NCBI GenBank assembly: GCA_038851755.1
Contig: JAWCKR010000001.1
Coordinates: 53,637-117,636, forward strand
DNA: 64,000 nt
Direction: 5' to 3'
From: Candidatus Hadarchaeales archaeon
GTDB lineage: Archaea > Hadarchaeota > Hadarchaeia > Hadarchaeales > WYZ-LMO6
Positions 10,424-41,407 of the stretch are shown in pieces. The notes below the pieces were generated by a model. That model was not told the DNA's origin. It saw only the letters and a list, made by a program, of their open reading frames with translations, and searched no databases. Within the stretch, counting starts at the first letter, position 1; each line of letters starts with the position of its first letter. The translations under genes and the position numbers were made by a program.

Positions 10424-10424
10424 A

Positions 10425-13463: not shown

Positions 13464-13859
13464 CTACCGCCCTCGTCCAGCTTTCGACTCCCGGCGGCCC
13501 ATCGCTTCTTCCACGGCCTTCTTGATCATCCTCTTGGGTGGATAGGGGTAGTGCCTCCCCCCGTAGAAGTAAACCCTGCACCCGAGCTTGCACTCCCTTC
13601 GAACGAAATGACCAGCGCTCTCGGCAAGCTCCTCGCAAGAAGGGCACCTCCCCTTCGTGACCTCCTCTTGAACATCCCTACCATCCACCAGCACGGTGGG
13701 CGAACCCAAAAACCCGTGCTCCTTGGCCTTTTCCTCCGTGTCTATCAGTATTTCTTCCACCTCCGCTTTTACCCCCAGTTCTCTCAGGACCTCTCTGACC
13801 ACCTCCTTGGTCTTCAGGCACCATGGGCAGTCCAATATGTACAGAATCTGAATCTTCAC
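13464..13859 (-). CDS. Thioredoxin/glutaredoxin-fold protein (CPWC active site) with a C-terminal Cys-rich (CPSC...C..C) extension, embedded in the pur operon
   Basis: KVKIQILYILDCPWCLKTKEVVREVL...GSPTVLVDG is a Trx fold; tail ...GRCPSCEELAESAGHFVRRECKLGC. The track ORF begins at GTG 13928 inside purQ with no RBS. GTG at 13859 follows the purQ stop, preceded by GAGGGAAAGAAG; preferred start. Confidence 0.6.
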   Translation of the reverse strand: MKIQILYILDCPWCLKTKEVVREVLRELGVKAEVEEILIDTEEKAKEHGFLGSPTVLVDGRDVQEEVTKGRCPSCEELAESAGHFVRRECKLGCRVYFYGGRHYPYPPKRMIKKAVEEAMGRRESKAGRGR

Positions 13860-13873
13860 CTTCTTTCCCTCGA

Positions 13874-14665: not shown

Positions 14666-17010
14666 GCCGGATTCCTCCAGGCCTTCCTCAGCTCCTCCGC
14701 CCCCACCGTCCACCCACCTCCCTTCCCCCTGAACCTCAGTACCCCTTCCCCCACCACGTGCCCTATCCTCGCAGCTCTCCCCCCCGTCATCTCCCTGAAC
14801 TCCTCCTCCCTTTCCTCCCTCACCTCCAGCAGGAACCTGCTGTTGGACTCCGAGAAGAGGAGGAAGTCCTCTCTGAGCCTGCCCTCGGAGGGGACCAGCG
14901 AAAGGTCCACCTCCGCCCCCACTTCCCCCCCCAGCACCATTTCGGCCAGGGCTACCCCCAGCCCACCCTCGGAGAGGTCGTGACACGCCCTCACCAGTTC
15001 TCTCCCCACGGCCTCCTCCACCACCTCCAGGTTCCTTCTGGCCTCCCCCAGTCTCACCCTGGGCACGCTCCTTCCGAGGTAACCGAACAGGGCATAGTAC
15101 TCAGAACCACCCAGCTCCGGGAAGGTGGTTCCCACTAGGTAGAGGGGATCCCCCTCCCTCTTCAGCTCCACGGAAACGGCTCTTCTCACCTCCGGTATCA
15201 CACCCACTGCCGTGATCAGGAGGGTGGGGGTCACAGGACCCAGCGGTGACTCGTTGTACAGGCTGTCCTTTCCCGAGATGAAGGGGGTACCCAGCCCCTT
15301 AGCGAAGCGGTAGCAGGCCTCGCAGGCCCTGACGAGCGAACCGAGCTGCTCCTCCTTCTCGGGGCTCCCCCACACGAAGTTGTCCAGCAGGGCTATCCTC
15401 CTGCCCCCCACGGCCACGTTGTTCCTCACCGCCTCCTCCAGGCTCGAAGCGGCCATCCAGTAAGGATCTATCTTCCCGTACCTGGGCTTCAGCCCGCAGG
15501 AGAGCACCACCCCCTTCTCCGAACCCCTGAGGGGTTTCAGGACCACCCCATCGTTGGGTCCCCCATGCTCCCCCTGCAGGGGCTTCAGAGCGGTGGCCCC
15601 CTGGACCTCGTGGTCGTAGGTCCTGATCACTTCCTCCCTGCTGCAGAGGTTGGGGGAGGAGAGGAGCCTGAGAAGGGCCTTCCTGGGCTCCGGAGGAGAA
15701 AAGCTCGGCTCCTCCAGGGGAGGTGCCCTCCACCTGGCCCTCCTCTCCACCAGCGGAGGAGAGAAGAGGAAGTCCAGATCAAGCTCGGCCACCCTGTGCC
15801 CGCGGTAAAAAACCCTGAGCGGGCCCTTCGTGAACCTTCCGATGGGGGTGGCCTCCACTTCCTCTTCCTCGAAGATCCTCACCACCTCCTCCACGTTCTC
15901 GGGAGGGACGCTCAGGGCCATCCTCTCCTGGGACTCCGAGACCCAGATCTCCCAGGGTTTCATGCCTGGGTACTTCAGCGGAACCTTCTCCAACCAAACC
16001 TCCACCCCGCAGCCGGCCTCCCTCGCCATCTCCCCGCTGGCGCAGGAAATCCCTCCTCCGCCCAGGTCGGTTACGGAGCTGGCCAGGCCCCTCTCCGCTA
16101 TCTCCAGGATCCCCCTCTTGAGTTTTTCCTCTTCTATGGGGTCGGGGATCTGAACGGCCGGCCTGGAGACTTCCTCCGATTCCTCGGAGAGCTCCAGGGA
16201 AGCAAAGGTGACCCCGTGGATGCCGTCCCTGCCCGTCCTTCCTCCCGCCAGGACCAGCAGGTCCCCAGGCCTCGTCCTCTTCACGTAGCTCCTGAGGGGG
16301 AGAAGCCCCACGCACCCGCAGTAGACCACGGGATTGCCCACATAGCTCTCGTCGAAGTATATGGCCCCCGCCACGGTGGGGATGCCCATGTTGTTGCCGT
16401 AAGCCCCTATCCCTGCCACCACCCCCCGGTAGATGTAACGAGGATGCTTGATTCCGGCGGGAAGCCGCTCGTGGGGGAAGCTGAGGGGCCCGAAGCCAAG
16501 CACGTCCAGGCAGGCTATGGGCTTCGCCCACACGCCCAGGATGTCCCTGATCACGCCCCCCACCCCGGTGGCCGCCCCACCGAAGGGCTCGATGGCCGAG
16601 GGATGATTGTGGGTCTCCACCTTAACGGCGAGGGCGTACCCGTCCTCGAACTCCACGATGCCCGCGTTATCCTTGAAGGTGGAGATGCACCAGGGGAGAG
16701 AAAGCTCTTCAGTGACACGGCTTATGAAATCCCTGAAGAGCCTGACCCTTTTCCCCCCCATCCTCACCACCCCCTTGAAGGTCTTGTGGAAGCAGTGCTC
16801 CGACCAAGTCTGGGCGATCCCCTGCAGCTCCACATCGGTGGGGTCCCTGCCTCTCCTGGAGAAGTACCCGCGGCACTCCTCCATCTCCCTCAGGCTCATG
16901 GCCAGGCCCATCTCCCTGCTTATCCTGGAGAGGTCCTCCCTGCCCGCCTCCCGCAACCCTATCTCATAAACCTCGAAGGGGAGCGGGAGCCTCCTGTAAA
17001 GCTCGCTCAA
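14659..17010 (-). CDS. purL: Phosphoribosylformylglycinamidine synthase subunit PurL (FGAM synthase II)
   Basis: 783 aa; ...VETHNHPSAIEPFGGAATGVGGVIRD... and a duplicated AIRS-like domain; typical small-type PurL. Confidence 0.95.
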   Translation of the reverse strand: MSELYRRLPLPFEVYEIGLREAGREDLSRISREMGLAMSLREMEECRGYFSRRGRDPTDVELQGIAQTWSEHCFHKTFKGVVRMGGKRVRLFRDFISRVTEELSLPWCISTFKDNAGIVEFEDGYALAVKVETHNHPSAIEPFGGAATGVGGVIRDILGVWAKPIACLDVLGFGPLSFPHERLPAGIKHPRYIYRGVVAGIGAYGNNMGIPTVAGAIYFDESYVGNPVVYCGCVGLLPLRSYVKRTRPGDLLVLAGGRTGRDGIHGVTFASLELSEESEEVSRPAVQIPDPIEEEKLKRGILEIAERGLASSVTDLGGGGISCASGEMAREAGCGVEVWLEKVPLKYPGMKPWEIWVSESQERMALSVPPENVEEVVRIFEEEEVEATPIGRFTKGPLRVFYRGHRVAELDLDFLFSPPLVERRARWRAPPLEEPSFSPPEPRKALLRLLSSPNLCSREEVIRTYDHEVQGATALKPLQGEHGGPNDGVVLKPLRGSEKGVVLSCGLKPRYGKIDPYWMAASSLEEAVRNNVAVGGRRIALLDNFVWGSPEKEEQLGSLVRACEACYRFAKGLGTPFISGKDSLYNESPLGPVTPTLLITAVGVIPEVRRAVSVELKREGDPLYLVGTTFPELGGSEYYALFGYLGRSVPRVRLGEARRNLEVVEEAVGRELVRACHDLSEGGLGVALAEMVLGGEVGAEVDLSLVPSEGRLREDFLLFSESNSRFLLEVREEREEEFREMTGGRAARIGHVVGEGVLRFRGKGGGWTVGAEELRKAWRNPAW

Positions 17011-24122: not shown

Positions 24123-25553
24123 CTAGGTGCCCCTCTCCGACTCCGAGGGGAGGAGGACGTCGTGGGGCCTGGTCTCCTGGGCCCCCAGGGGAGAGAGAAC
24201 GGCGAACCTGGCCTTCTCCCAGAGGTCCCTGATGCTCCTAGCCCCCGCGTACCCCATGGAGGCCCTCAGGCCCAGCACCAGCTCCTTCACGGCCGTGCTC
24301 ACCTCACCCTTGTAGGGCACCCACCCCTCCACGCCCTCCGCTATCCCCTTGGAAGGAACGGAGTACCTGTCCAGCGAGTACCTCTTGGCCATGGCCGAGG
24401 GACTCCCCATCCCCCTGTACTGCTTGTAGTACCTTCCCCCTATGCTCACCAGCGTCCCTGGGGCCTCCTTGCACCTGGCGAAGAGGTTCCCCGCCATGAC
24501 CACGGAGGCCCCGGCAGCCAGCGCCAGCGCTATGTCTCCCGGGCCCCTGACCCCCCCGTCGGCCATCACCGGGAGCTCCAGCCCGTAGTCCCTCAGGGCG
24601 TCGGCCACGCTTGCGGTGGCGTAGAGGGTGGGGGATCCCGCCTTCGTGACCTCGGTGGTCACGCATATCGAGCCGGAGCCCACCCCCGCCCTGAAACCGG
24701 CCACACCCTCCAGCTTGGTGATCACGTCCTCCGCGGCCTGGTAGGTCCCCACGTTCCCCACCACCAGGTCCGCCTCCACCTCCTCCAGCATCCTCTTGGT
24801 GGCCTCCAGCACGGCTGAGTTGTGGAAGTGGGCCACGTCCGTCACCAGCACGTTGACGTACCTGTCCAGCTTCTTCGCCCTCTCCAGGTCGAAGGGGGAG
24901 ACCGCGGCCGCGCACAGGAGCTGTCCCTCCTCGTCCCTGGCCGCCTCCGGGTACTTTCCCCTGAGCATGATGTCCCTGAAGGTGATGAGCCCCCTGAGGT
25001 TCCCGTTCTCGTCCACGATGGGGAGCTTCTCGATCTTGTGCTGGTGGAGAAGGTCCTTCGCCTCCTCCAGGCTTATCCCTTCCCTGGCCGTCACCACCTC
25101 CTTCGTCATCACGCTTTCCACCCTGAACTCGGGGTTGGCGAAGCGCACGTCCCTGCCCGTCAGGATGCCCACCAGCTTCCCACCCTTCACCACCGGAAGA
25201 CCCGAGATGTGGTGGGCCTCCATGAGCTTCATGGCCTCGCCCACCGTCTGGTCAGGGGCCACGGTCACCACCTCCCTTATCACCAGGGACTCCGCCCGCT
25301 TCACCTTCTTGGCCATCTCCACCTGCTCCTCCACGCTGCAGTTGCGGTGGAGGACGCCCACCCCTCCCTCCCTCGCCATCGCTATCGCCATCTCGGTCTC
25401 CGTGACGGTGTCCATCGGGGAGGAGACAAGGGGAATGTTCAGGGAATAGTTCTTGGTGAACCTGGTCCTCACGTCGATCTCGGAGGGCTCGACCGCCAGC
25501 CCGGGGAGCAGGATGAGGTCGTGGAAGGTGAGGGCCAGTTCAGCCCCCGTCAC
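24123..25553 (-). CDS. guaB: Inosine-5'-monophosphate dehydrogenase with CBS pair
   Basis: ...ALTFHDLILLPG...; tandem CBS domains; catalytic loop GVGSGSICVTTEVTKAGSP; ...GGVRGPGDIALALAAGA... GTG at 25553 is preceded by AGGAGGaaa. The track ORF to 25835 is a Gly-rich over-extension overlapping the upstream gene. Confidence 0.9.
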   Translation of the reverse strand: MTGAELALTFHDLILLPGLAVEPSEIDVRTRFTKNYSLNIPLVSSPMDTVTETEMAIAMAREGGVGVLHRNCSVEEQVEMAKKVKRAESLVIREVVTVAPDQTVGEAMKLMEAHHISGLPVVKGGKLVGILTGRDVRFANPEFRVESVMTKEVVTAREGISLEEAKDLLHQHKIEKLPIVDENGNLRGLITFRDIMLRGKYPEAARDEEGQLLCAAAVSPFDLERAKKLDRYVNVLVTDVAHFHNSAVLEATKRMLEEVEADLVVGNVGTYQAAEDVITKLEGVAGFRAGVGSGSICVTTEVTKAGSPTLYATASVADALRDYGLELPVMADGGVRGPGDIALALAAGASVVMAGNLFARCKEAPGTLVSIGGRYYKQYRGMGSPSAMAKRYSLDRYSVPSKGIAEGVEGWVPYKGEVSTAVKELVLGLRASMGYAGARSIRDLWEKARFAVLSPLGAQETRPHDVLLPSESERGT

Positions 25554-25618
25554 TTTCCTCCTGAAGCCTCCCTCCGGCACTCTTCCACCTTCTATCAAGG
25601 AAAGGGGGGAGTTTAACC

Positions 25619-26128
25619 CTATCGGGAGACGGGGGGTCCTCCCTCGAACTCCCTCAGCAGTCTCTCCACTTCGCCCCTCACCTTCTCCACCTCCACCACC
25701 ACCACTCCCTCTCCCGGCTGCCCGTACAGGACCACGGTGCCCGGAGGGGACTTCGCCACGGCCGCGAGCGTGGCCAGGTCCTCCTCCCCCTCCACCACTA
25801 TCTTCAGGGGAGGGGGGAGGTCGAAGGTCTCCCACAGCTCCCTGGAGAGGGTGGCCGGTGGATTCACCACCCTCCTCTCGGGAAAATCCAGCTCCTCCAC
25901 CCTCCTCCTCTCCTCTCCAGACAGGGGGGAGCGGAGGGTCTTGAAGTCCACCACGCAGACATCGGGCCTCACCCCCTCTCCCAGGAGGGTGGCGGTGACC
26001 ATGTCCCCCACCGTCACTATCCTTCTCGGTCGGAGGGTTCTCACGTGCCTCAGGGCCTCCCCCATGCTTGGGAAGACCCTGCCCAGCGGCCTCTTGAGCC
26101 TGTCCCTGAGGTGCTCCGGAAGCCTCAT
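25619..26128 (-). CDS. DUF359/COG1909 protein, probable GTP-dependent dephospho-CoA kinase
   Basis: 169 aa; MRLPEHLRDRLKRPLGRVFP...IVTVGDMVTATLL...VVDFKT... matches the small DUF359 family assigned as archaeal DPCK. ATGA overlap with the DGGGP synthase stop. Confidence 0.55.
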   Translation of the reverse strand: MRLPEHLRDRLKRPLGRVFPSMGEALRHVRTLRPRRIVTVGDMVTATLLGEGVRPDVCVVDFKTLRSPLSGEERRRVEELDFPERRVVNPPATLSRELWETFDLPPPLKIVVEGEEDLATLAAVAKSPPGTVVLYGQPGEGVVVVEVEKVRGEVERLLREFEGGPPVSR

Positions 26129-26994
26129 CCCAACCTCCCCAGCAGGAAGGCCAGCAGGCCGAAGAGCATCCAGAGGAGGGAGAGGCGCTTGAGCTCCGCT
26201 GCCTTACTGGCCGAGGGCTTCCTCAGGGAGAGGAAACCCGTGGAGAGGAAGCCCGCGTCCGCCAGCACCACGGGAGGAAGGTACCAGGGGGAGACCTCAC
26301 CCAGCAGAAGGGGGAGGGGGCTCAGCGCCACGGCCGAGAGGTAGAAGAGGAGGACGAAGGAAGCCGCACCCTTCTGGCCTCTGGAGACCGCGAGCGTCCT
26401 GATCCCCCTTCTCCTGTCCCCCTCCACATCCGCCATCCCCTTCAAAATCTCTCTCCCCGTGTTGGAAAGGAAAGCCATGAGCAGGAAGAAGGAGAGGGTA
26501 AGGGTGGGTTCTTCGCCCACCACCAGGGGACCGTAGAGGAAAGGTATGGCCACGCAGGTGCTCACCATCAGGTTGCCGGGCAGCCCCGTCCTCTTCCCCC
26601 TCGCGTTGTAGTAGGTGGAAAGAAGGAAGGAGAGAACGGCGACGAGCAGGGGATAGAGGGTCCCCCTCTCCACCCAGCTCCCGGCCGCGGAGAGAAGGCC
26701 GAGCGCCGCCAGCCAGGAAGCGAAGAGGAGGGCCTCTCCCGTCGAAACGAGGCCGCTTGGGATGGGCCGGCCAGGCTGGTTCACCTCGTCCACGAAGCGG
26801 TCGAAGTAATCGTTCACCGTCATGGAGGCCCCTGTGAGGAAGAAAGCCGTGGAGAAACCGAGAAGGCTCGGGAGGAACTCCAGCCTGCCCACGGCCAGGA
26901 TCTCCCCCACCAGGACGGCGAGCCCCATCATGAGGCAGTTGGGAAGCCTGAGAAGGGAGAGAAAAGCCCGGAGCCTGCGCAGGGGGGTCTTCAT
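26125..26994 (-). CDS. Digeranylgeranylglyceryl phosphate synthase (UbiA prenyltransferase family)
   Basis: Multi-TM protein with NDYFDRFVDEVNQPGRPIPSG (UbiA Asp-rich motif 1) and a second D-rich region. ATG (MKTPLRRLRAF) at 26994; the track start at TTG 27021. Confidence 0.85.
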   Translation of the reverse strand: MKTPLRRLRAFLSLLRLPNCLMMGLAVLVGEILAVGRLEFLPSLLGFSTAFFLTGASMTVNDYFDRFVDEVNQPGRPIPSGLVSTGEALLFASWLAALGLLSAAGSWVERGTLYPLLVAVLSFLLSTYYNARGKRTGLPGNLMVSTCVAIPFLYGPLVVGEEPTLTLSFFLLMAFLSNTGREILKGMADVEGDRRRGIRTLAVSRGQKGAASFVLLFYLSAVALSPLPLLLGEVSPWYLPPVVLADAGFLSTGFLSLRKPSASKAAELKRLSLLWMLFGLLAFLLGRLG

Positions 26995-27096
26995 GACTTT
27001 CAAGGGGGATGAACCCTCCAAGTTTTAACCCTACCGAAATCCCCTCCGAAAAAGCTCACCCTATAATAACCCTACGCGCCAAAAACACCGAAGGAC

Positions 27097-28689
27097 ATGG
27101 AGCTCAAGAAAACCACCTCACTCTGCCCGGAGTGCCTCAGTATTCTCCAGGCGACCCTTTACGAGAAAGATGGCAAGGTCTGGATGAAGAAGGTCTGCCC
27201 GGAGCACGGGGAGTTCGAGGAGGTTTACAGCGGGTCCTCCGAGTGGTACAGGAGGGCCGAACGGTACGCGATGGACGGAAGGGGGGTGGAGAACCCGCAG
27301 GTGACCAAGAAGGATCCCTCCTGCCCTCAAGACTGCGGCCTGTGCAGCCTCCACCTGAGCCATACGGCGCTTGCAAACATCGTGCTGACGAACAGGTGCG
27401 ATCTGACGTGCTGGTATTGCTTTTTTTTCGCCCAGCGACTCGGCTACGTCTACGAGCCCACCCTCAAGCAAATTGAGGAGATGCTCAAGGTCCTCAAGAG
27501 CGAGAAACCCATCGCGTGCAACGCGGTGCAACTGACGGGTGGGGAGCCCTGCCTGAGGGAGGATCTCCTCGAGATCATAAGGCTGATCAAATCTTACGAC
27601 TTCGACCACATCCAGCTCAACACCAACGGGATAAGGCTGGCGCAGGAACCGGAACTCGCGTCGAAGGTCCGCGAGGCCGGGGTGAACACCCTCTACCTCA
27701 GTTTCGATGGGGTGAGCGAGAAAACGAACCCCAAAAACCACTGGGAGTTCCCCCTGGCCCTGGAGAACTGCCGGAAAGCGGGACTGGGGATAGTGCTCGT
27801 ACCCACCGTCATCAAGGGAGTGAACGACCATGAGATCGGGGACATCGTGAAGTACGCCTTCAGGAACCTCGACATCGTCAGAAGCGTGAACTTCCAGCCG
27901 GTTTCCCTCGTGGGGAGGATGCCCCGCGAGGAGAGGGACCGGTACAGGATAACCATCCCCGACGTCATCAAGAAACTGGAGGAGCAGACCAACGGGGAGG
28001 TAACCCTGCAGGACTTTTTCCCCGTGCCCACGGCCCTCGTGATAAGCAGGTTCATCGAGGGGCTCACGGGCAGACCGAGCTACGACCTCAGCTCCCACTT
28101 CGCGTGCGGAGCGGCGACCTACGTGTTCAGGGAGAACGGAAGGATGATCCCGATCACCAGGTTCATAGACGTGGAGGGCTTCCTGGAGTACATGAGGGAG
28201 AAGACGGAGGAGCTGAAGAGGGGAAAGAGCAGGACCCTCATGAAACTGAAGCTCCTCGCCTCCATAGGGAAGTTCATAGACTCGAGGAAGAAGCCCAGGG
28301 ACCTCAAGCTGGGCAGGCTCATCTATCAGATTTTCGTGAGACGGAACTACGGCGCCCTCGGCCAGTTCCACATGAAGTCCCTCTTCATAGGGATGATGCA
28401 CTTCATGGACCTCTACAACTACGACGTGGAGAGGGTGAAGAGGTGCTGCATCCACTACGTGATGAGCGACAACAGGGTGGTTCCCTTCTGCGCCTTCAAC
28501 GTCATCCCCGAGTGGTACAGGGACAAGGACCAGGAGAGCCAGGGAGTCCCCATAGAGGAGTGGGAGAGGAGGACCGGGAAGAAGCTCAGGGACGACCTCT
28601 ACAAGCGCGACGTGGAAAGGCTCAAGCGGACGGACGCTTACCGTAAGTTCGAGCAGGATCTGAAGGAGATAAAGTCAGGCCTTTACTAG
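27097..28689 (+). CDS. Radical-SAM protein, probable tetraether lipid synthase (Tes / GDGT-MAS-like)
   Basis: 530 aa; N-terminal Cys/His knuckles (CPECLS...CPEHG, rubredoxin-like); radical-SAM CX3CX2C (NRCDLTCWYC); long C-terminal domain with further Cys (CCIHY...C). Sits between DGGGP synthase and GGR/GGGPS/G1PDH. TATA-like ctATAATAAc centred ~31 nt upstream of the ATG. Confidence 0.6.
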   Translation: MELKKTTSLCPECLSILQATLYEKDGKVWMKKVCPEHGEFEEVYSGSSEWYRRAERYAMDGRGVENPQVTKKDPSCPQDCGLCSLHLSHTALANIVLTNRCDLTCWYCFFFAQRLGYVYEPTLKQIEEMLKVLKSEKPIACNAVQLTGGEPCLREDLLEIIRLIKSYDFDHIQLNTNGIRLAQEPELASKVREAGVNTLYLSFDGVSEKTNPKNHWEFPLALENCRKAGLGIVLVPTVIKGVNDHEIGDIVKYAFRNLDIVRSVNFQPVSLVGRMPREERDRYRITIPDVIKKLEEQTNGEVTLQDFFPVPTALVISRFIEGLTGRPSYDLSSHFACGAATYVFRENGRMIPITRFIDVEGFLEYMREKTEELKRGKSRTLMKLKLLASIGKFIDSRKKPRDLKLGRLIYQIFVRRNYGALGQFHMKSLFIGMMHFMDLYNYDVERVKRCCIHYVMSDNRVVPFCAFNVIPEWYRDKDQESQGVPIEEWERRTGKKLRDDLYKRDVERLKRTDAYRKFEQDLKEIKSGLY

Positions 28690-28746
28690 CTCGGCGAGCG
28701 ATGCGCAACGCTTCCCTTATAAGTCCACCGGAAAAGTTAGCTGAAG

Positions 28747-29916
28747 ATGTCAGAGCAACAGGAGTACGACGTGATCGTGGTGGGTGCAGGGCCCGCGGGC
28801 CTGATGGCTTCCAGGAAGGCCGCTGAGGCCGGGGCCAGCACCCTCCTGCTGGAGAGGGAGAACTCCCTGGGGAAAAAGCCCTGCGGGGAGGCTGTGTCCG
28901 TGTCCACGCTCGAGGACGCCGGAGTGAAGGGAGGGAGGTTCATCCGCAACCGCGTGGAGATCTTCAGGGTGCACGCCCCTGACGAGCGGAAGTACGTGGA
29001 CATCCTCTCCCGCAAGCTGGGAACGGCGGGATACGTGATAGAGAAGGGACTCTTCCTGAAAGAGCTGGCCTACCTGGCCGTCAAGAGGGGAGTGGAGATG
29101 AGGATGGGTTCGCCCGTGCTGGACCTGAGGAGGGTGGAGGGGTGGTGGGAGGTCCTAGTCAAGCAGGGGGCGGAGAGGAGGAAGTTCAGGGGAAAGATAG
29201 TGATAGGATGCGACGGGGTGAACTCGGTGGTGGCCGGGAAGGCCCTGCGGGTGAAAAAGCCCGAGGTCATCCCCTGCTTCCAGTACAAGATGGTGAACTG
29301 CGGGGTAGAGGACCCGCACACGCTGGAGGTCTACCTGGGGAAGGAGGTGGCCCCCGGGGGCTACGTGTGGCTCTTCCCGAAGGACGGGGGGGAAGCCAAC
29401 GTGGGGATAGGGGTGAGGGGGGCGCCGGCCAAGCCCTACCTAGACCGCTTCCTCTCCTCCCATCCCGAGCTCTTCGGCGGGGCCGGCGTGGTGGAGGTGG
29501 GCGCTGCACCCGTGCCGGTGGGGGGGGAAGTCGAGAGGGTGGTGGGGGAGGGGGTGATGGTGTGCGGGGATGCGGGCGGGCAGGTGATACCCCTCACGGG
29601 GGGAGGAATCCACTCCTCCGTGGTCGCGGGGAAGATGGCGGGAGAGGTGGCGGGAGAGGCCGTGAAGGGGGGCAGGGAACTGCAGGAATACCCCCGGAGA
29701 TACGAGGAGTGGAGCGAAAGGATCTCCCGGAGCCTGAAGGTGCTCAGGCTCATAGAGAAGCTGAGCGACAAGGAGCTGAACCAGCTGGCCGACCTCCTCA
29801 CCGGCCAGGACGTGGTGGACCTGGCCAACGGGACCAACCTGAAAAGGGTGGGGAGGAAGCTCCTGCGGCATCCTCACTTCGCCCTCCGCCTGGCGAGGGG
29901 GCTGCTGGGTGGTTGA
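28747..29916 (+). CDS. Geranylgeranyl reductase (digeranylgeranylglycerophospholipid reductase), FAD-dependent
   Basis: YDVIVVGAGPAGLMASRKAAEAGASTLLLER...KPCGEAVS... (FAD Rossmann + conserved Cys); 389 aa typical GGR. Confidence 0.9.
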   Translation: MSEQQEYDVIVVGAGPAGLMASRKAAEAGASTLLLERENSLGKKPCGEAVSVSTLEDAGVKGGRFIRNRVEIFRVHAPDERKYVDILSRKLGTAGYVIEKGLFLKELAYLAVKRGVEMRMGSPVLDLRRVEGWWEVLVKQGAERRKFRGKIVIGCDGVNSVVAGKALRVKKPEVIPCFQYKMVNCGVEDPHTLEVYLGKEVAPGGYVWLFPKDGGEANVGIGVRGAPAKPYLDRFLSSHPELFGGAGVVEVGAAPVPVGGEVERVVGEGVMVCGDAGGQVIPLTGGGIHSSVVAGKMAGEVAGEAVKGGRELQEYPRRYEEWSERISRSLKVLRLIEKLSDKELNQLADLLTGQDVVDLANGTNLKRVGRKLLRHPHFALRLARGLLGG

Positions 29917-30676
29917 GCTGGGCAGGGTGGAGAAGTACCTGAGGGAGGGGATGCGAAAGCATCCGCTGCACCTCACGCTGGTGGACCCCGAGAAGACCCG
30001 CGGGGACAAAGCGGGGGAACTCTGCAGGAGGGCGGAGAAAGCGGGGACCTCGGCCATCATGGTCGGGGGCTCCACCGTGTGCTCCACCACCCTCGTGGAC
30101 GAAACGGTGAAGGCCATCAAGAAGGAGGTGGAGCTCCCCGTCATCCTTTTTCCCAACAACCTCTCCGGCATCAGCAGGTACGCCGACGCCATCTTCTTCA
30201 TGTCCCTCCTCAACTCCTCCAACCCCTACTTCCTCATCGACGCGCAGGCCCTGGGGGCTCCCCTCGTGAGGGAGTACGGCCTGGAGGTCCTCCCCATGGG
30301 CTACCTCATCCTGGGACCGGGGGGAACGGCGGGCTTCGTGGGGCAGGCGAGGTTCCTCCCGCTGGAAAAGGCGGAGCTGGCGGCAGCCTACGCTCTAGCC
30401 GCCCAGTACCTGGGGATGCACTTCGTCTACCTGGAAGCGGGCTCGGGGGCCCCCACGCCCGTTCCACCCCAGACCATCTCCGCCGTCCGGAAGTGCGTGG
30501 ACCTCCCCCTCATCGTGGGAGGGGGAATAAGGACGGGAGAGGAGGCCAGGAGGGCGGCGCAGGCCGGGGCGGACCTGGTGGTGACGGGAACGGTGGTGGA
30601 GGAGGGAAGGGTGGAGGAGAAGATAGGGGAAATGGTGGAGGCCCTCCGAAAGGTGCGCCGGGGTAAGGAGCGTTGA
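29909..30676 (+). CDS. Geranylgeranylglyceryl phosphate synthase (PcrB family)
   Basis: ...HLTLVDPEKT...AIMVGGS...YLEAGSGAP...LIVGGGIRTGEEA is a TIM-barrel GGGPS. GTG start overlaps the GGR stop (GTGGTTGA). Confidence 0.9.
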   Translation: MVELGRVEKYLREGMRKHPLHLTLVDPEKTRGDKAGELCRRAEKAGTSAIMVGGSTVCSTTLVDETVKAIKKEVELPVILFPNNLSGISRYADAIFFMSLLNSSNPYFLIDAQALGAPLVREYGLEVLPMGYLILGPGGTAGFVGQARFLPLEKAELAAAYALAAQYLGMHFVYLEAGSGAPTPVPPQTISAVRKCVDLPLIVGGGIRTGEEARRAAQAGADLVVTGTVVEEGRVEEKIGEMVEALRKVRRGKER

Positions 30677-31713
30677 GGGACATCCACACCATCGACCTCC
30701 CCACCAGAGTGGTGGTGGGGAGAAAGGTGATCGAGAAGGTGGGGGAGACCTGCAGGGAGCTGGGCTTGAGGGGGAGGGTCCTGGTGCTCTCTGGTCCCCA
30801 CACCCAAACCAGGGCCGGAAGGAGGGTGATCACCTCACTGGAGGAAGAGGGCTTCGAGCCCAACCTCCTCAGGGTGGAGGGGGAACCCCTGGAGGAGGTG
30901 GAGGAGGAGATCCGGAGGACCAGGCCCTCCTTCCTGGTGGGGGTGGGGGGAGGGAGGGTGATAGACCTGGCCAAGTACTCCTCCTCGAGGGCCCGTCTTC
31001 CCTTCCTCAGCGTCCCCACCGCCGCCTCCCACGACGGCATCGCCAGCTCCAGGGCCTCCCTGCGCAGGCTGGGACCCCTCTCCGTGGACGCACGCACCCC
31101 CCTCGCCATCCTGGCCGACGTGGAGGTGATCTCCCGTTCCCCCCACCGCCTCACGGCGAGCGGGTGCGGTGACCTGATGGCCAAGTTCACCGCCGTGAGG
31201 GACTGGAGGCTCTCCCACCTCCTCACGGGGGAGTACTACGGGGACTACTCCGCACAGCTGGCCCTGATGAGCGCGGAGGTGACGGCGCGCAACTCCAAGC
31301 TGATAGGGGAGGGAAAGGAGGAAGGGGTGAGGGTGGTGGTGGAGGCCCTCATCAGCTGCGGGGTGGCCATGTGCATCGCCGGCAGCTCCAGGCCCTGCAG
31401 CGGCTCGGAGCACTCCTTCGCCCACGCGCTCGAGGAGGTCTCCCCCAACCCCTCCCTGCACGGGGAGAGGTGCGGGGTGGGCACCATCCTCATGGCCTAC
31501 CTCCACGGGATGAACTGGAAGAGGGTGCGCAGGGTCCTCTCGGAGGTGGGAGCACCCACCACGGCGGAGGAGCTGGGAGTGGAGGGGGAGGCGGTGGTGG
31601 AGGCCATGCTCAGGGCCAGGGAAATCAGGCCCGAGAGGTTCACCATCCTGAACAGGAAAAAGCTGAACAAGGAGATGGCGAGGAGGATAGCGGAAAAAAC
31701 GGGAGTGGTCTAG
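30673..31713 (+). CDS. egsA: Glycerol-1-phosphate dehydrogenase [NAD(P)+]
   Basis: 346 aa of the DHQS/glycerol-DH superfamily: ...VLSGPHT..., ...VGVGGGRVIDLAKY..., ...SHDGIAS..., metal ligands H..H. TTG start overlaps the GGGPS stop (TTGA). Confidence 0.88.
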   Translation: MRDIHTIDLPTRVVVGRKVIEKVGETCRELGLRGRVLVLSGPHTQTRAGRRVITSLEEEGFEPNLLRVEGEPLEEVEEEIRRTRPSFLVGVGGGRVIDLAKYSSSRARLPFLSVPTAASHDGIASSRASLRRLGPLSVDARTPLAILADVEVISRSPHRLTASGCGDLMAKFTAVRDWRLSHLLTGEYYGDYSAQLALMSAEVTARNSKLIGEGKEEGVRVVVEALISCGVAMCIAGSSRPCSGSEHSFAHALEEVSPNPSLHGERCGVGTILMAYLHGMNWKRVRRVLSEVGAPTTAEELGVEGEAVVEAMLRAREIRPERFTILNRKKLNKEMARRIAEKTGVV

Positions 31714-36046: not shown

Positions 36047-36769
36047 TTAAGGCACAAATCTGTTCTTCCCCAGGGAAAGGAGGAACTCACGGGTCTTGGT
36101 CCCCAGACCCAGCGTCTCAGCCCTCAGGAGGTCCTCCACCCCATCCACGTCCGTGGCCACCGTCTCCGACCGGTAAATCTTGGGCCTTATCCCCGCCCTG
36201 AGGCTCTCCCTCACATGGAGGGGGAAGCTCTCCCCTCCGAACCTGAGGGGGATCACGTCGGGCGGGCGCAGGAACAGGGCGTTGGTCCCCCGGGCGTAAG
36301 AGGGGGCGATCACCACCTCCCTCTCGGAGGAAGCCATCCCCACTATCCCCTCCACATCATCCACCCTGAGGAAGGGAAGATCGGCGGGGAGGATCAGGAC
36401 CTCCCTCGCTCCCTCCCTCACCGCCCTCCCCACCGCCAGCGAGAGGGCCAGGTTCAGCTCCAGCCCGGGCTCCCTCAGGACCTCCGCGCCCATCCCGGAG
36501 GCGAGGCGCAGGACCTCCTCGTCCGGTGAGACCACCACCCTCCTCATCCTCACCCTGGAGAGGACCCCCAGCATGTCAGAAAGCATGCACAGGACCAGTT
36601 CCCTCCTCTCCGGGGGAGTGAGGACCCCCTCGAAGGTGGACTTGGCCCTAGAGAGGGGTTTCAGGGGCAGAACCACCCAGCCTTTTCCTTCCTCCACGGT
36701 CTCCATGAACTCACGGAAGAAGACGCTTTTACCCCTTCGGAGGGATACGTGATTTATTACCGGGGGCAT
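36047..36769 (-). CDS. cofC: 2-phospho-L-lactate (or PEP) guanylyltransferase CofC
   Basis: ...[15 protein letters not shown]...; MobA-like NTP-transferase fold; 240 aa. ATG at 36769; a later in-frame ATG (36706, METVEEG...) is also possible and would remove the head-to-head overlap with cofG. Confidence 0.78.
36753..36760 (+). promoter_or_regulatory. TATA-like box (ATTTATTA) ~26 nt upstream of the cofG ATG (leaderless geometry)
   Basis: gtgATTTATTAccgggggcatcgaggaaagggtATG. Box centre to ATG 36782 is ~25.5 nt. Confidence 0.4.
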
Positions 36770-36781
36770 CGAGGAAAGGGT

Positions 36782-37795
36782 ATGGACCCCCCCCGCAAGG
36801 TGGTGACCTATTCCCTGAACGTCTTCGTGCCCCTCACCAACTTCTGTAGGAACCGATGCGCCTACTGCGGCTTCAGAAGGGAGGAGGGGGAAGCCACCTT
36901 CCTCTCTCCACAGGAGGTCTTCTCCCTCGTGCTAAGGGGGAAGAAGGCCGGATGCTCGGAAGTGCTGCTCACGCTGGGGGAGAGACCCGAGGTCTACCCC
37001 TCAGCGAGGGAGAAGCTCAGGGAGCTGGGCTACCGGACCACCTCCGAGTACCTGGAGGACCTGTGCAGGCACATCCTCAGGTTGGGCCTTCTCCCCCACA
37101 CCAACGCGGGGGTGCTGAGCGAGGAAGAGCTGGGCAGGCTCAGGAGGTACAACGCCAGCATGGGGTTGATGCTGGAGTGCGCCGCCAGGCTCGAGGCCCA
37201 CCGGGAGAGTCCAGGGAAGGACCCGGAGCTCAGGCTGAGGTTCATAGAGAAGGCCGGGAGGCTCAGGATCCCCTTCACCACGGGCCTCCTGGTGGGGATA
37301 GGGGAGAACCGAGAGGACAGGAGGAGGTCGCTGGAGGAGATAAGAAGACTGCACGAGGAGTACGGGCATATCCAGGAGGTCATCGTCCAGCCCTTTTCTC
37401 CCAAGCCAGGGACCCCGATGGGCGGTTTTCCCCCTCCCAGCCCGGAGGAGCTGCTGGACACCGTGAGGATGGCCGCGGAGATCCTTCCCCCAGACATGGG
37501 CATCCAGATCCCCCCGAACCTGGTTCCGGATGTGGTGCCCTTCCTCGAGGCTGGGGCCAACGACCTCGGAGGCCTCTCCGAGGTCACCCCTGACTTCGTG
37601 AATCCGGAGCACAACTGGCCTCCGCTGGGGGAGCTCCGGAGGAAGGTGGAGTCCGCAGGTTTCGAGCTCAGGGAAAGGCTACCCCTTTATCCCAAATACG
37701 CGACCGATGCCTCTTTCATGTCCGAGGAGGTCAGGAAGGTCACCTCCAGGCTGGCCGATGGGGAAGGCTACAGGCGTCCTCTCCAAAAAGATTAA
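36782..37795 (+). CDS. cofG: FO synthase subunit 1 (7,8-didemethyl-8-hydroxy-5-deazariboflavin synthase CofG), radical SAM
   Basis: ...VTYSLNVFVPLTNFCRNRCAYCGF... (CX3CX2C) and the remainder typical of CofG. ATG (MDPPRK) at 36782; the track start is GTG 36749. Confidence 0.9.
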   Translation: MDPPRKVVTYSLNVFVPLTNFCRNRCAYCGFRREEGEATFLSPQEVFSLVLRGKKAGCSEVLLTLGERPEVYPSAREKLRELGYRTTSEYLEDLCRHILRLGLLPHTNAGVLSEEELGRLRRYNASMGLMLECAARLEAHRESPGKDPELRLRFIEKAGRLRIPFTTGLLVGIGENREDRRRSLEEIRRLHEEYGHIQEVIVQPFSPKPGTPMGGFPPPSPEELLDTVRMAAEILPPDMGIQIPPNLVPDVVPFLEAGANDLGGLSEVTPDFVNPEHNWPPLGELRRKVESAGFELRERLPLYPKYATDASFMSEEVRKVTSRLADGEGYRRPLQKD

Positions 37796-37820
37796 GAACG
37801 TGGGAACCAGAGGCTCCAAC

Positions 37821-38975
37821 ATGAAAGGGGGAAGAGCGAGGGGCTCCTCCGCCCTGGAGGGACGGTGGGAGAAAAGGCTGGCGGAGATAGACCCCCTCGT
37901 GGCCGGGGCCCTGGACAGATCCCTCTCCGGCAAAAGCCTGAGTTTGAGGGAGACGGCAGAGCTGCTCAGGACGGAGGGGAGGGAACTGCAGCTCCTCCTC
38001 CTGGCGGCGGACCTGGTGAGGAGAGGGCTCGTGGGTGAGGTCGCCACCTACGTGGTCAACCGGAACATCAATCACACCAACATCTGCACGGGCTCCTGCA
38101 GGTTCTGCGCCTTCCGCCGCCCCCCCTCCCATCCGGAGGCCTACTCCCTCACCCCCCAGCAGCTGAGGGCGAAGGTGGAGGAGGCCGTGAGGATGGGGGC
38201 CACCGAAATCTGCCTGCAGGGTGGTCTCCACCCCGACTTCGGACTGGAAACTTACCTGGACCTCCTCCGCATCATCAGGGGGGTTTCGGAGGAGCTCCAC
38301 ATCCACGCCTTCTCCCCCGCCGAGCTCGACCACCTCTCCCGGAAAGAGGGGATGTCCGTGGATGAGGTGCTGAAACCTCTCAAGGAAGCCGGCCTGAACT
38401 CGGTTCCGGGGACGGCCGCGGAAATCCTGAGCGACAGGGTGAGGGAGATCATCTGCCCGACGAAGATCAAGACGAAGAGGTGGGTGGAAATCGTCAAGAC
38501 CTGTCACCGGAGGGGGATACCCACCACCTCCACCATGATGTACGGAACGGTGGAAACTCCCGAGGAAAGGGCCGGACACCTCCTGCTCCTGAGGGAAATC
38601 CAGAAGGAAACGGGAGGCTTCACGGAGTTTGTCCCCCTTCCCCTGGTTCCCAAGAAGACCGAACTTTATTCCTCGGGCATCACCGGTCCCACCATAAGGG
38701 ACAACCTGAGGACGCACGCCGTGGCCAGGCTGGCCCTGGCGGGTTACATCAACCACGTGCAGGCCTCATGGGTGAAGCTGGGACCGGAGGGGGCCTGCGC
38801 CATGCTGATGGCCGGGGCGGACGACCTGGGAGGAACCCTGTTCGAGGAGAACATCACCAGGGAGGCGGGAGGGGAGTGGGGGCAGGGAATGACCCCCCAC
38901 CAGCTCAGGCTCCTCATCCTGCGGGCCGGAAGGATACCCAGGCAGAGGTCCACCCTCTACGAACTCCTGGACTGA
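37821..38975 (+). CDS. cofH: FO synthase subunit 2 (CofH), radical SAM
   Basis: ...YVVNRNINHTNICTGSCRFCAF... (CX3CX2C); ...LQGGLHPDF...; 384 aa from ATG (MKGGRARG) at 37821. The track ORF from 37707 overlaps the cofG 3' end. Confidence 0.9.
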   Translation: MKGGRARGSSALEGRWEKRLAEIDPLVAGALDRSLSGKSLSLRETAELLRTEGRELQLLLLAADLVRRGLVGEVATYVVNRNINHTNICTGSCRFCAFRRPPSHPEAYSLTPQQLRAKVEEAVRMGATEICLQGGLHPDFGLETYLDLLRIIRGVSEELHIHAFSPAELDHLSRKEGMSVDEVLKPLKEAGLNSVPGTAAEILSDRVREIICPTKIKTKRWVEIVKTCHRRGIPTTSTMMYGTVETPEERAGHLLLLREIQKETGGFTEFVPLPLVPKKTELYSSGITGPTIRDNLRTHAVARLALAGYINHVQASWVKLGPEGACAMLMAGADDLGGTLFEENITREAGGEWGQGMTPHQLRLLILRAGRIPRQRSTLYELLD

Positions 38976-39898
38976 CGGCCCATCTCCTCCAGGACCCTCC
39001 TGGCCAGCCTCCTCCTCTCCGCCAGATTCCTCATCCAGAGGTTGGCCAGATGCACCCTCATCCCCACCTCCTCCACGGAGGGAGCGAACTCCCTGTCCGA
39101 GAGGTGCAGGAAGAAGTGCCCTGCCACCTCCCTGTAGTACTCGGCCACCCCCCTGGGGCTCACCTCGAACCCCAGGGCCTCCATCAACTTCCCCGCGGGA
39201 CCGCTCACCGGGGCCCTCCCCAGAATGGGACTCACCACCCCCACCTCCTCCTTCCTCCTCCTCAGCTCCTCCCGGATCTTCCTGAGGGAGAGGATGGGCC
39301 CTATGCTGGTCACGGGGTTGCTGGGCCCTATCAGCACGAAGTCGCTCTCCCTGAGCGCGCGCAGAACCCCGGGGGCGGGCTCAGCCTCCTCAGAACCCCT
39401 GAACCTCACCCCCCTGACCCTCTCCCTCCCCCCTCGACCCACCCAGAACTCCTGGAAATGCACCCAGCCCCGGGGGGTGAGGATTTCCGTGACCACCCTG
39501 TCGTCCGTCATGGGCAGGACCCTGGCCCTCACCCCCCATCTCCTGCAGAGCTCGGAGGTGAACCGGGAGAGCCTCTTCCCCCTCCTGAGCTCCAGGGTCC
39601 TGAGAAGGCAGGTCGCCCTGTCCCTGTCCCCCAGCCTGAGGAGCTCCTTCACCCCCAGTTCCCGCAGGGCGAGGTGGGTCTCAAAGGTGTCGCCCCTTAT
39701 CCCCCACCAGGTCTCCTCGTTGATGAGACCGGAAAGGGTGTAGACCACGGCATCCAGGTCGGGGGAAACGTGCAGACCCGACACCTCCACGTCGTCTCCG
39801 GTGTTGACCACCACGCACAGCTCATCCTCCTCCACCTCCCTCACCATCCCCTGCAGGAGCTTCGGGGTGCCCGTGCCCCCGGAAAGGAGGGCGATCAT
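38957..39898 (-). CDS. cofD: 2-phospho-L-lactate transferase (LPPG:FO transferase) CofD
   Basis: MIALLSGGTGTPKLLQGM... and the rest of the CofD/YvcK-like fold; 313 aa. Confidence 0.9.
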   Translation of the reverse strand: MIALLSGGTGTPKLLQGMVREVEEDELCVVVNTGDDVEVSGLHVSPDLDAVVYTLSGLINEETWWGIRGDTFETHLALRELGVKELLRLGDRDRATCLLRTLELRRGKRLSRFTSELCRRWGVRARVLPMTDDRVVTEILTPRGWVHFQEFWVGRGGRERVRGVRFRGSEEAEPAPGVLRALRESDFVLIGPSNPVTSIGPILSLRKIREELRRRKEEVGVVSPILGRAPVSGPAGKLMEALGFEVSPRGVAEYYREVAGHFFLHLSDREFAPSVEEVGMRVHLANLWMRNLAERRRLARRVLEEMGRQSRSS

Positions 39899-39921
39899 CT
39901 CCCCAGCTCCCCCTCCCCCCT

Positions 39922-39939
39922 AAAAAGGGTGGGCTTTTT
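39922..39939. promoter_or_regulatory. Palindromic bidirectional promoter element AAAAAG-GGTGGG-CTTTTT between divergent cofD and the HAD gene
   Basis: Arms AAAAAG/CTTTTT are reverse complements. The minus-strand CTTTTTA centre is ~26 nt from the cofD ATG (39898). The plus-strand CTTTTTTT run is ~32 nt from the HAD ATG (39970). Confidence 0.4.
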
Positions 39940-39969
39940 TTCTTCCCCCTCCAGGTATCGGGGACCTGG

Positions 39970-40593
39970 ATGAGGGTAAAGGCTGTGCTCTTCGACCTGG
40001 ACGGGGTGCTGGTGGACTCCCTAGACGTCTGGTACAGGTCGATGAACGAGACCCTGAGCAAGTTCGGAAGGGAGAGGGTGGGGAAGGGGGAGTACCTCAA
40101 GAGGTACTGGGGCTTCAGCCTCTCCAAGAACTTCGAGAGGCTGGGGCTGGGAAGGGAAGCCGTGGACTACTGCCTCTCCCGATACGAGCACCACCTGGAA
40201 GAGATCCAACCTTTCCCCGAAACGAGGGAGGTGCTGGAAGAACTCAGGAGGAGGAGGTTCAAGCTGGCCCTCGTCACCAACACCCCCTCCCGCATGGTGC
40301 AGCGCCTCCTCTCCAAACTGAACCTGAGGGAGTTCTTTCACGCCGTCATCACGGGGGACGATGTGAGGAAGGCCAAGCCACATCCAGACGCCGTGAGAAA
40401 GGCCTGCCGCCAGCTGGAGGTCCCTCCGGAGCAGGCTGTGCTGGTGGGGGACACCAGAAGCGACGTGCTGGCGGGAAGGAGCGCCAAAGTGGTGGTGGTG
40501 GGAGTGGGGGTGGAGGGAGATGTCAGGATCGAGAACCTGAGAGACCTCCTCCTCTTCCTGAGGACCTCAGGAGAAGAGGTCCTTCTCCCTTGA
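39970..40593 (+). CDS. HAD-superfamily hydrolase (phosphatase / beta-phosphoglucomutase-like subfamily IA)
   Basis: MRVKAVLFDLDGVLVDS (motif I DxDG); ...LALVTNTP... (motif II); ...KAKPHPD...LVGDTRSD... (motifs III/IV). Confidence 0.8.
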   Translation: MRVKAVLFDLDGVLVDSLDVWYRSMNETLSKFGRERVGKGEYLKRYWGFSLSKNFERLGLGREAVDYCLSRYEHHLEEIQPFPETREVLEELRRRRFKLALVTNTPSRMVQRLLSKLNLREFFHAVITGDDVRKAKPHPDAVRKACRQLEVPPEQAVLVGDTRSDVLAGRSAKVVVVGVGVEGDVRIENLRDLLLFLRTSGEEVLLP

Positions 40594-41325
40594 CCTCACC
40601 AGCTCCCTGGCTCTCCCCTTTCCCTTCTCGTAGACCGCTCCCCTCACCAGCACCACCGGGGTACCCTCCCCCGCCTCGCCCATCATCAGAACGGCCGCGG
40701 CCGCCAGGGCATCGGCCTGGGCCAGCACCGTGACCTTCAGCTCCTTCCCGTACAGGTCCCTTCTTCCCCTGAGGTCGAGCAGGGGTTTCATTCCCGCCAC
40801 ACCTATGGCCACGCCCAGGCACCCCGTCCTGAAGGCCCTGCCCTGGGTGTCGGAGATGATCACGGCCACCTCCACTCCCAGTTCCTCCCTGATCCTCCTC
40901 CTGATCTTCTCGGCGCTACCGTCGGGGTCCCGTGGGAGGAGGGTCACATGGTCCTTCTCCACGTTGGAGTGATCCACCCCGGCGTTGGCGCACACGAAGC
41001 CGTGCTCCGTTCTTGTGATGAGCACGTGAGAGGACCTCAGGATTTCCCTGGCCTCCCTGAGGATCACCTCCACCTCCCTGGCGTCCTTCTCCAGACGCGA
41101 GGCCAGCCTCTTCGCCGCTTCTGAGGGCCTGATCCTTCTGAGGTCCACGACCGCACCCTCCGCCTTGGAGACTATGGACTGGGCAACCACGAGCACGTCC
41201 CCGGATTGGAGGGAGAGCCCCTGGGAGCGAAGGGCCTTCACCACCAGCTCCCCTATGTCGTCCCCCTTCTTCACCATGGGAAAACCGGGGAGGGGGATCA
41301 CCTCCATCCTGGAGAGTTCGGGCAT
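40567..41325 (-). CDS. cofE: Coenzyme F420-0:L-glutamate ligase CofE (paralogue 1)
   Basis: ...MEVIPLPGFPMVKKGDDIGELV...SKAEG...ANAGVDHSN... typical CofE. ATG at 41325 (MPELSRMEV...) lies ~26.5 nt from the centre of the palindromic TATA at 41343-60 (leaderless geometry). The track start is GTG 41343 inside the palindrome. Confidence 0.85.
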   Translation of the reverse strand: MPELSRMEVIPLPGFPMVKKGDDIGELVVKALRSQGLSLQSGDVLVVAQSIVSKAEGAVVDLRRIRPSEAAKRLASRLEKDAREVEVILREAREILRSSHVLITRTEHGFVCANAGVDHSNVEKDHVTLLPRDPDGSAEKIRRRIREELGVEVAVIISDTQGRAFRTGCLGVAIGVAGMKPLLDLRGRRDLYGKELKVTVLAQADALAAAAVLMMGEAGEGTPVVLVRGAVYEKGKGRARELVRSREKDLFS

Positions 41326-41342
41326 CCTAGCAGTTTCCCACA

Positions 41343-41360
41343 CCGGGATTTTATACCCGG
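41343..41360. promoter_or_regulatory. Palindromic TATA element CCGGG-ATTTTATA-CCCGG shared by the two divergent cofE paralogues
   Basis: 5-bp perfect inverted arms around an 8-bp A/T box. Centre is 26.5 nt from the minus-strand cofE ATG (41325) and ~56 nt from the plus-strand cofE GTG (41408). Confidence 0.45.
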
Positions 41361-41407
41361 CTTAGAACCCGAACACCTTCATAAGGGGGGAGAACCACTT
41401 CTCACCC

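Follow-up and report, generated by a model that had tools for sequence, protein, structure and literature searches.

A 64-kb stretch of DNA from a hot-spring Candidatus Hadarchaeales metagenome-assembled genome (MAG), referred to here as the window, carries five genes of the archaeal ether-lipid core within a span of 5589 bp (26125–31713), as recognized from a listing of its open reading frames (ORFs) and from scans against the Pfam and NCBIfam family models. Facing away from one another across a divergent intergenic spacer (26995–27096) are, on the minus strand, a UbiA-family prenyltransferase gene assigned to digeranylgeranylglyceryl phosphate synthase (DGGGPS; 26125–26994), the enzyme of the second ether bond, and, on the plus strand, the gene for a 530-aa radical S-adenosylmethionine (radical-SAM) protein of the GDGT-MAS family, the tetraether lipid synthase Tes (27097–28689). 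Beyond a second spacer (28690–28746) there follow, also on the plus strand, a geranylgeranyl reductase of the digeranylgeranylglycerophospholipid (DGGGPL) reductase type (GGR; 28747–29916), the PcrB-family geranylgeranylglyceryl phosphate synthase of the first ether bond (GGGPS; 29909–30676) and sn-glycerol-1-phosphate dehydrogenase (G1PDH, or EgsA; 30673–31713). Random placement of five genes within 5.6 kb of a 1–2 Mb genome has a probability of ~1e-9. We consider it highly probable that the locus is a chromosomal core-lipid cluster of known enzymes, organized as three units and derived from an older two-block layout; it is a real and conserved lipid cluster whose genes are probably regulated together.

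In the pathway proposed here, G1PDH would make the sn-glycerol-1-phosphate backbone, to which GGGPS and the UbiA-type DGGGPS would attach two geranylgeranyl chains via ether bonds. GGR would saturate these chains, and Tes, with its rubredoxin-type iron and three [4Fe-4S] clusters, would form C-C bonds between the chain ends of the saturated diethers to give glycerol dibiphytanyl glycerol tetraether (GDGT), macrocyclic archaeol being a possible further product. The substrates of Tes are saturated lipids, and the GDGT-MAS structure contains a bound archaeal lipid labelled AG (PMC9433317); we take AG to be archaetidylglycerol, a head-group lipid.

The first-pass annotation of this DNA had described the pathway as complete, which overstates what is present. 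Searches of the full 64 kb for geranylgeranyl diphosphate synthase (GGPPS), CDP-archaeol synthase (CarS) and the HMG-CoA synthase, thiolase, DUF35, UbiD and AcnX families, all five of which belong to the archaeal mevalonate route, came back empty, and the only other multi-spanning membrane ORF in the window is a transporter. GGPPS, CarS and the head-group enzymes would be encoded elsewhere in the genome.

Identity of the Five Enzymes

The radical-SAM protein had been described as Tes-like, and this reading is borne out. It reaches 724.8 bits on the NCBIfam model “tetraether lipid synthase Tes” (NF045702), above the equivalog cutoff of 450, as compared with 90 bits on the MoaA model and 44 bits on the PqqE model, values that exclude a MoaA/PqqE-like subfamily. 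Its Pfam domains are Zn_ribbon_HMPTM and Radical_SAM, and against the solved Methanocaldococcus jannaschii GDGT-MAS (MJ0619; 7TOL/7TOM) it gives 486 bits over residues 4–492 (7TOL, E 9e-145). Domain order and all metal ligands are shared with the M. jannaschii enzyme, from which the window protein differs in a C-terminal tail of ~38 residues that is common to its nearer homologues.

The correspondence extends to the individual ligands. The GDGT-MAS structure features a rubredoxin-type iron bound at a CX2C...CX2H site, an auxiliary cluster with Cys3-His ligation, a radical-SAM cluster bound by a CX3CX2C motif, and a C-terminal cluster with a labile Met439 and a conserved Tyr459 (PMC9433317). 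Residue invariance was judged in an alignment of 18 sequences, and the offset due to the 20-residue tag of the 7TOL chain was derived by hand from the printed alignment. The rubredoxin-type site of the window protein, C10/C13/C34/H37, corresponds to GDGT-MAS C9/C12/C33/H36, and its N-terminal auxiliary [4Fe-4S] site, C76/C80/C83, to C73/C77/C80; both sites are invariant. Close to the latter lie two invariant histidines, H86 and H89, either of which could be the ligand. The CX3CX2C motif, C101/C105/C108, is likewise invariant and aligned with that of 7TOL, M434 and Y454 align with Met439 and Tyr459 and are again invariant, and the region of the C-terminal auxiliary cluster contains the invariant cysteines C337, C450 and C465. 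Judged by its sequence, then, the window protein is a true tetraether synthase. In a close relative, the Tes orthologue (L085:2942–5068) is a 708-aa protein with an intein (PF14890) in its radical-SAM region; NCBIfam already includes a model for intein-containing Tes.

For the UbiA-family protein, which scores 134 bits on Pfam UbiA, three DGGGPS-type models head the NCBIfam matches (NF009521, NF009522 and NF009523), each with a score below its cutoff: 256.2 bits against 269, 191.5 against 296 and 129.8 against 353. We assign the protein as a DGGGPS because its best solved relative is the M. jannaschii DGGGPS (6M31; 133 bits, full length), the next being chlorophyll synthase at 59 bits; because the Asp-rich motifs NDYFDRFVD and DVEGD are both present in its translation; and because its orthologues, at 50–60% identity, adjoin Tes or GGR in three other loci (L012, L169 and L172).

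The remaining three proteins score above at least one family cutoff each. GGR reaches 209 bits on TIGR02032 (cutoff 158.8) and 78 bits on Pfam GGR_cat, its best solved structure being the Thermoplasma acidophilum DGGGPL reductase 3OZ2 (188.8 bits, residues 5–371); it misses the cutoffs of the lineage-specific DGGGPL-reductase equivalogs (185.8 vs 780). GGGPS scores 215.9 bits on Pfam PcrB, 271 on TIGR01769 (cutoff 161.55), 333.6 on NF003198 (cutoff 247) and 290 against the solved GGGPS 4MM1. G1PDH scores 458 bits on NF002022 (cutoff 413) and 254 bits, over its full length, against the solved G1PDH 5FB3. Family models and best solved-structure matches (7TOL, 6M31, 3OZ2, 4MM1 and 5FB3) thus confirm all five gene assignments of the first-pass annotation.

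Two other identities deserve consideration. One might suppose that the radical-SAM protein is a pterin methyltransferase or a TrsS-type selenoprotein rather than a lipid enzyme, given the name of its N-terminal Pfam domain, Zn_ribbon_HMPTM, and its 354 bits on the TrsS model. The domain name presumably preserves an older annotation, under which MJ0619 was assigned as a pterin methylase. The TrsS score lies under that model's cutoff of 490, the Tes score is far over its own, the gene stands among four lipid genes, and MJ0619 itself has been proven to be a GDGT-MAS by biochemistry and structure (PMC9433317); we find this alternative scarcely credible. It is also very improbable, to our minds, that the UbiA-family gene encodes another prenyltransferase, of the quinone, haem O or chlorophyll-like kinds. 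Such a role would be in keeping with the functional diversity of the UbiA family (PMC7852524) and with the failure of the protein to reach any of the NCBIfam DGGGPS equivalog cutoffs, but DGGGPS accounts for its best family and structural matches, chlorophyll synthase scores less than half as high, and the company its orthologues keep is that of Tes and GGR.

Gene Junctions and Predicted Transcription Units

The first-pass annotation had GGR, GGGPS and G1PDH coupled by GTGA/TTGA overlaps. As read from the sequence, the GGGPS/G1PDH junction is indeed a 4-nt TTGA overlap, with a Shine-Dalgarno-like AAGGAG just upstream, but GGR and GGGPS overlap by the 8 nt GTGGTTGA rather than by GTGA. At the far end of the cluster, the stop codon of G1PDH overlaps that of the convergent HflX gene.

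On the leftward side, the stop of DGGGPS overlaps by ATGA the start of a DUF359 gene encoding a GTP-dependent dephospho-CoA kinase-like protein (DPCK; 25619–26128, minus strand; 104 bits on Pfam PF04019 and 86 bits on NF041125, under the cutoff of 300), an overlap by which, from the sequence, DUF359 is translationally coupled to DGGGPS. The third gene of this leftward unit is IMP dehydrogenase (IMPDH; 24123–25580, minus strand; 377 bits on Pfam IMPDH, 493 bits on TIGR01302), which is not a lipid gene. Its start is placed at GTG 25580, preceded by the Shine-Dalgarno-like GAAGGTGGA, to give a protein of 485 aa, as in its orthologues. The longest IMPDH ORF (24123–25835, minus strand, 570 aa) was rejected as over-extended, its additional N-terminal portion being a spurious Gly/Arg-rich extension that overlaps DUF359.

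The start of DGGGPS is placed at ATG 26994, giving 289 aa, orthologues being called at 289–290 aa; the longest ORF starts elsewhere, at TTG 27021. Given the ATG start, the divergent spacer is 102 nt long, as had been annotated. It contains two TATA-like boxes in the window: a TTAAAA on the minus strand at 27023–27028, ~31 nt upstream of the DGGGPS ATG, and a plus-strand TATAATAA at 27062–27069, ~31 nt upstream of the Tes ATG. When both spacers of the cluster were aligned over four genomes, those of the window and of its relatives L001, L081 and L085, the TTTAAA/TTAAAA box proved to be conserved in all four at ~31 nt from the UbiA ATG. In the three relatives, this same box is the only one and stands ~30 nt from the Tes ATG as well, an arrangement suggestive of a bidirectional promoter. 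The window alone has a 39-nt insertion (27030–27068), and it is this insertion that supplies the second TATA-like box, TATAATAA.

A further TATA-like box, CTTATAAG, is found in the Tes-GGR spacer at 28716–23, ~27 nt upstream of the GGR ATG, within a ~40-nt block that is near-identical in the window, L001 and L081; it is probably an internal promoter. If the boxes in the divergent spacer likewise function as promoters, as their positions suggest, the transcripts would be short-leader or leaderless. The most likely organization, on this view of the spacers, is one of three transcription units. DGGGPS, DPCK and IMPDH would be transcribed leftward; Tes would be transcribed rightward from the divergent spacer; and GGR, GGGPS and G1PDH would form a third unit with its own conserved TATA-like box and with translational coupling by overlapping stop and start codons.

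Genomic Setting

The cluster is not a genomic island, because its G+C content is native (G+C is uniform across the window, and the cluster matches its surroundings), it lacks flanking repeats, and its neighbors are housekeeping genes. No integrase, flanking repeat or other sign of a mobile element was found around it, a repeat search yielding purine-rich coding repeats only. Proteins identical to those of the window are on deposit from a Candidatus Hadarchaeales MAG, where they lie on a 135-kb contig. The rest of the window encodes RNA polymerase, purine synthesis, a CoA transferase, F420 biosynthesis, ribosomal proteins, histidine synthesis, RtcB and a transporter. The F420 cluster (36047–42175), which is syntenic with that of L166, comprises CofC, CofG/H-type radical-SAM proteins, CofD, a HAD hydrolase and, as two divergent paralogues, the F420 ligase CofE. 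An Rfam scan of the whole window returned no riboswitch and a single, distant tRNA gene (10425–10499, minus strand; 73 bits), which lies a short way upstream of the genes for the RNA polymerase subunits.

Rarity and Recurrence of the Linkage

That these genes are usually scattered, as the first-pass annotation had it, is well supported. The window proteins were used to search 80 Tes loci from species-representative genomes, each with 10-kb flanks; just two of them had the full set of five in linkage, L001, a close relative with the same gene order, and L012. A second set, of 80 metagenome G1PDH loci, was searched for linked lipid genes; among these distant loci, which have at most 54% identity to the window G1PDH and do not reach the window's clade, not one had a lipid gene linked to G1PDH. 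Synteny comparison finds the arrangement to be uncommon and to be shared by L001, L081 and L085. In these three, the order IMPDH-DPCK-UbiA / Tes-GGR-GGGPS-G1PDH is identical to that of the window, with Tes 82–86% identical, and the linkage of IMPDH to UbiA-DUF359 is kept in all three and in L172 as well. The arrangement is uncommon across archaea but recurrent in Hadarchaeota and Bathyarchaeia, and so not unique.

Other lipid-gene neighbors of Tes are seen in the same 80 loci. In 15 of them, mainly from Archaeoglobi and Hadarchaeum, CarS is the gene directly upstream of Tes (L003, L005, L006, L027, L032, L033, L036, L038, L040, L041, L045, L049, L058, L063 and L073); the copy in L005 scores 187 bits on Pfam CarS-like. 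A TrmB-family regulator, a gene absent from the window when searched for, adjoins Tes in ~17 of the 80, drawn from several phyla, and is a possible regulator of Tes. In two MAGs of Nitrososphaerales/Nitrosopumilales, a polyprenyl-synthase-like gene is found directly downstream of Tes on the opposite strand (L016:9625–10329; L029:6406–7110). Tes tends to acquire lipid-gene neighbors in varying combinations, the window being one of the fuller of these.

Several known systems offer points of comparison. In Methanosarcina acetivorans, MA_1484 (GGR), MA_1485 (ferredoxin) and MA_1486 (Tes) are adjacent, so that here, too, Tes is encoded close to the reductase producing the saturated lipid on which it acts; the adjacency of these three Methanosarcina genes was among the clues that led to the identification of Tes (PMC8941075). 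M. acetivorans differs in having a dedicated ferredoxin, for which the window cluster has no counterpart, and in encoding G1PDH, GGGPS, DGGGPS and GGPPS at the distant loci ma3686, ma3969, ma0961 and ma0606 (PMC12042123). According to Villanueva et al., only Ca. Cloacimonetes and some Euryarchaeota had been found to have GGGPS and DGGGPS co-localized (PMC7852524). As in the window, both ether-bond enzymes are there encoded close together, an arrangement termed unusual, but that linkage involves two genes, whereas the window has five, with GGGPS and DGGGPS on opposite strands and Tes and GGR between them. Finally, the synthetic GDGT pathway built in E. coli relies on the same five activities, G1PDH, GGGPS, DGGGPS, GGR and Tes, but additionally required GGPPS, CarS, a GGR-specific ferredoxin and helper plasmids (PMC12042123); of these additions, GGPPS, CarS and the ferredoxin are missing from the window cluster.

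Evolutionary History of the Cluster

A more distant relative, represented by L166/L172 (ENA contig NODE_14), suggests how the cluster may have arisen. There, GGR-GGGPS-G1PDH faces Tes-UbiA-DUF359-IMPDH with 8.6 kb between the two blocks, an interval occupied by a radical-SAM/SPASM gene, RnfCDGEAB and ApbE. Downstream synteny is the same as in the window (HflX, a transglutaminase-like protein, a PALP enzyme, CofC, CofH, CofD, HAD and CofE), and divergence from the window is uniform, at 57–77% identity over lipid and non-lipid genes. From this shared synteny, we infer that the organism is Hadarchaeota-like, and both blocks look to have descended vertically. The older layout would then be that of the relative, GGR-GGGPS-G1PDH facing Tes-UbiA-DPCK-IMPDH, and the difference between the window clade and L172 would comprise the loss of the 8.6-kb block in the former, or its gain in the latter, together with an inversion of Tes.

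The radical-SAM/SPASM gene of the relative (L166:6499–7968, minus strand, equivalent to L172:1472–2941, plus strand), which was searched for in the window and is absent from it, stands divergently beside GGR-GGGPS-G1PDH and encodes a 489-aa protein with an N-terminal extension of ~120 aa. An Aenigmatarchaeota MAG encodes a homologue (L008:13011–14399) with 50% identity, at a distance of 1.5 kb on the downstream side of Tes. The domain layout of the L166 protein resembles that of the GMGT synthase Gms (PMC11186832), and no NCBIfam model matches it at its cutoff; we regard the protein, on its sequence and context, as a candidate lipid-tailoring enzyme. In one relative (L168:8200–11344), GGGPS and G1PDH are separated by an inserted DUF2070 gene; the G1PDH there is matched in two frames and called at 447 aa, an indication of either a frameshift or a fusion.

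Larger clusters are found under the Bathyarchaeia label, the L012 cluster being more complete than that of the window. Over ~14 kb (1212–14938, 34% G+C), L012 has GGPPS-DUF35-thiolase-HMGCS-G1PDH-GGGPS-GGR facing Tes-UbiA-UbiD-FtsX-AcnX (large and small). In L169, UbiA faces GGR-GGGPS-G1PDH-HMGCS-GGPPS, and L170/L171 (Hecatella) has genes of the mevalonate pathway, together with Tes, facing GGR-G1PDH-GGPPS. L012, L169 and L170 thus resemble the window in having GGR-(GGGPS)-G1PDH facing Tes and/or UbiA, with proteins 50–66% identical to those of the window; they differ from it in gene order and in also having GGPPS, HMG-CoA synthase/thiolase/DUF35, and UbiD and AcnX-family genes.

These comparisons raise the question of whether the cluster, or its GGR-GGGPS-G1PDH core, is a lipid cassette that has been horizontally exchanged between Bathyarchaeia and Hadarchaeota. 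Outside the window's clade and P0144, which belongs to the L166/L172 organism, the nearest named relatives of the G1PDH, among its best 120 matches, are from Bathyarchaeia/Hecatellales (58–63% identity), and no other Hadarchaeales name is found among those 120; in L012, moreover, the layout is divergent in the same way, with GGR-GGGPS-G1PDH facing Tes-UbiA. Little weight attaches to the absence of Hadarchaeales labels, however, because only about one-quarter of the database proteins carry names, and the native composition of the cluster, the lack of an integrase or repeats beside it, and the flanking synteny and uniform divergence shared with L166/L172 argue for vertical descent within the lineage. 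We judge an exchange of this kind to be distinctly unlikely. A neutral origin, in which local rearrangement happened to bring together genes that are not functionally co-regulated and that work as if they were scattered, would fit with the 8.6 kb of Rnf/ApbE genes that part the two blocks in L172, with the lack of linkage in Hadarchaeales whose Tes is 70–79% identical, with the promoter-like box that Tes and GGR each have to themselves, and with the presence of the non-lipid genes IMPDH and DPCK in the company of UbiA. Yet lipid genes have become linked repeatedly, in differing combinations and in independent lineages (L012, L169, L170, the CarS-Tes pairs in 15 of 80 loci, and the Methanosarcina GGR-ferredoxin-Tes genes), stop and start codons overlap within the GGR-GGGPS-G1PDH unit, and a five-gene span of this kind would arise by chance with a probability of only ~1e-9, so that we find a purely neutral origin decidedly improbable.

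Some observations do weigh against the interpretation of the locus as a conserved, co-regulated tetraether cluster. The UbiA protein comes no nearer to an NCBIfam DGGGPS equivalog cutoff than 256.2 bits against 269. The cluster is absent from other Hadarchaeales, both L082, in which Tes is 79% identical, and L002–L006, in which it is 70–75% identical; because Hadarchaeales with 70–79% identical Tes do without the cluster, linkage is not required for function. The window Tes is only 64% identical to that of the synteny-sharing L172 lineage, versus 70–79% to that of the cluster-less Hadarchaeales, a mismatch that might be due to transfer, to differences in evolutionary rate, or to certain lineages having lost the linkage. 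With separate promoter-like boxes, the five genes need not be co-transcribed and may be transcribed apart. As for the product, macrocyclic archaeol was obtained only in trace from the Tes homologue MA_1114, and Tes homologues differ in product (PMC8941075), so that GDGT is a predicted product of the window enzyme; our literature search found no lipid data for Hadarchaeota, which are uncultured.

Implications

The enzymes of the cluster are all known, and no new enzyme or mechanism is implied; its main use lies in studies of synteny and evolution and as a natural template for engineering. Because archaeal lipid genes are normally dispersed, Tes came to light only in 2022, and the inference of lipid pathways from MAGs is a piecemeal affair. 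A cluster such as this one provides independent support, from gene context, for the assignment of Tes in an uncultured phylum. It also offers a compact thermophilic template for the engineering of tetraether membranes, and can serve as an anchor when unknown regulators and lipid-modifying enzymes are sought through guilt by association.

More speculatively, the divergent GGR-GGGPS-G1PDH / Tes-UbiA arrangement may be an old, selectable “tetraether membrane module” of Hadarchaeota and Bathyarchaeia, one that has moved as a unit and grown by accretion, a possibility that we put forward tentatively and think on balance unlikely. Accretion would have added GGPPS, CarS, mevalonate genes and lipid-tailoring radical-SAM enzymes, such as the radical-SAM/SPASM proteins of L166 and L008. 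Were this to be true, a single step could suffice to transfer membrane-lipid chemistry, and the gene context of the module could reveal lipid enzymes that are still unknown. The cluster offers a case in which to test whether the pathways of membrane lipids travel as units, a matter of relevance to the “lipid divide” debate, and for the organisms themselves it predicts that these Hadarchaeales would contain GDGTs.

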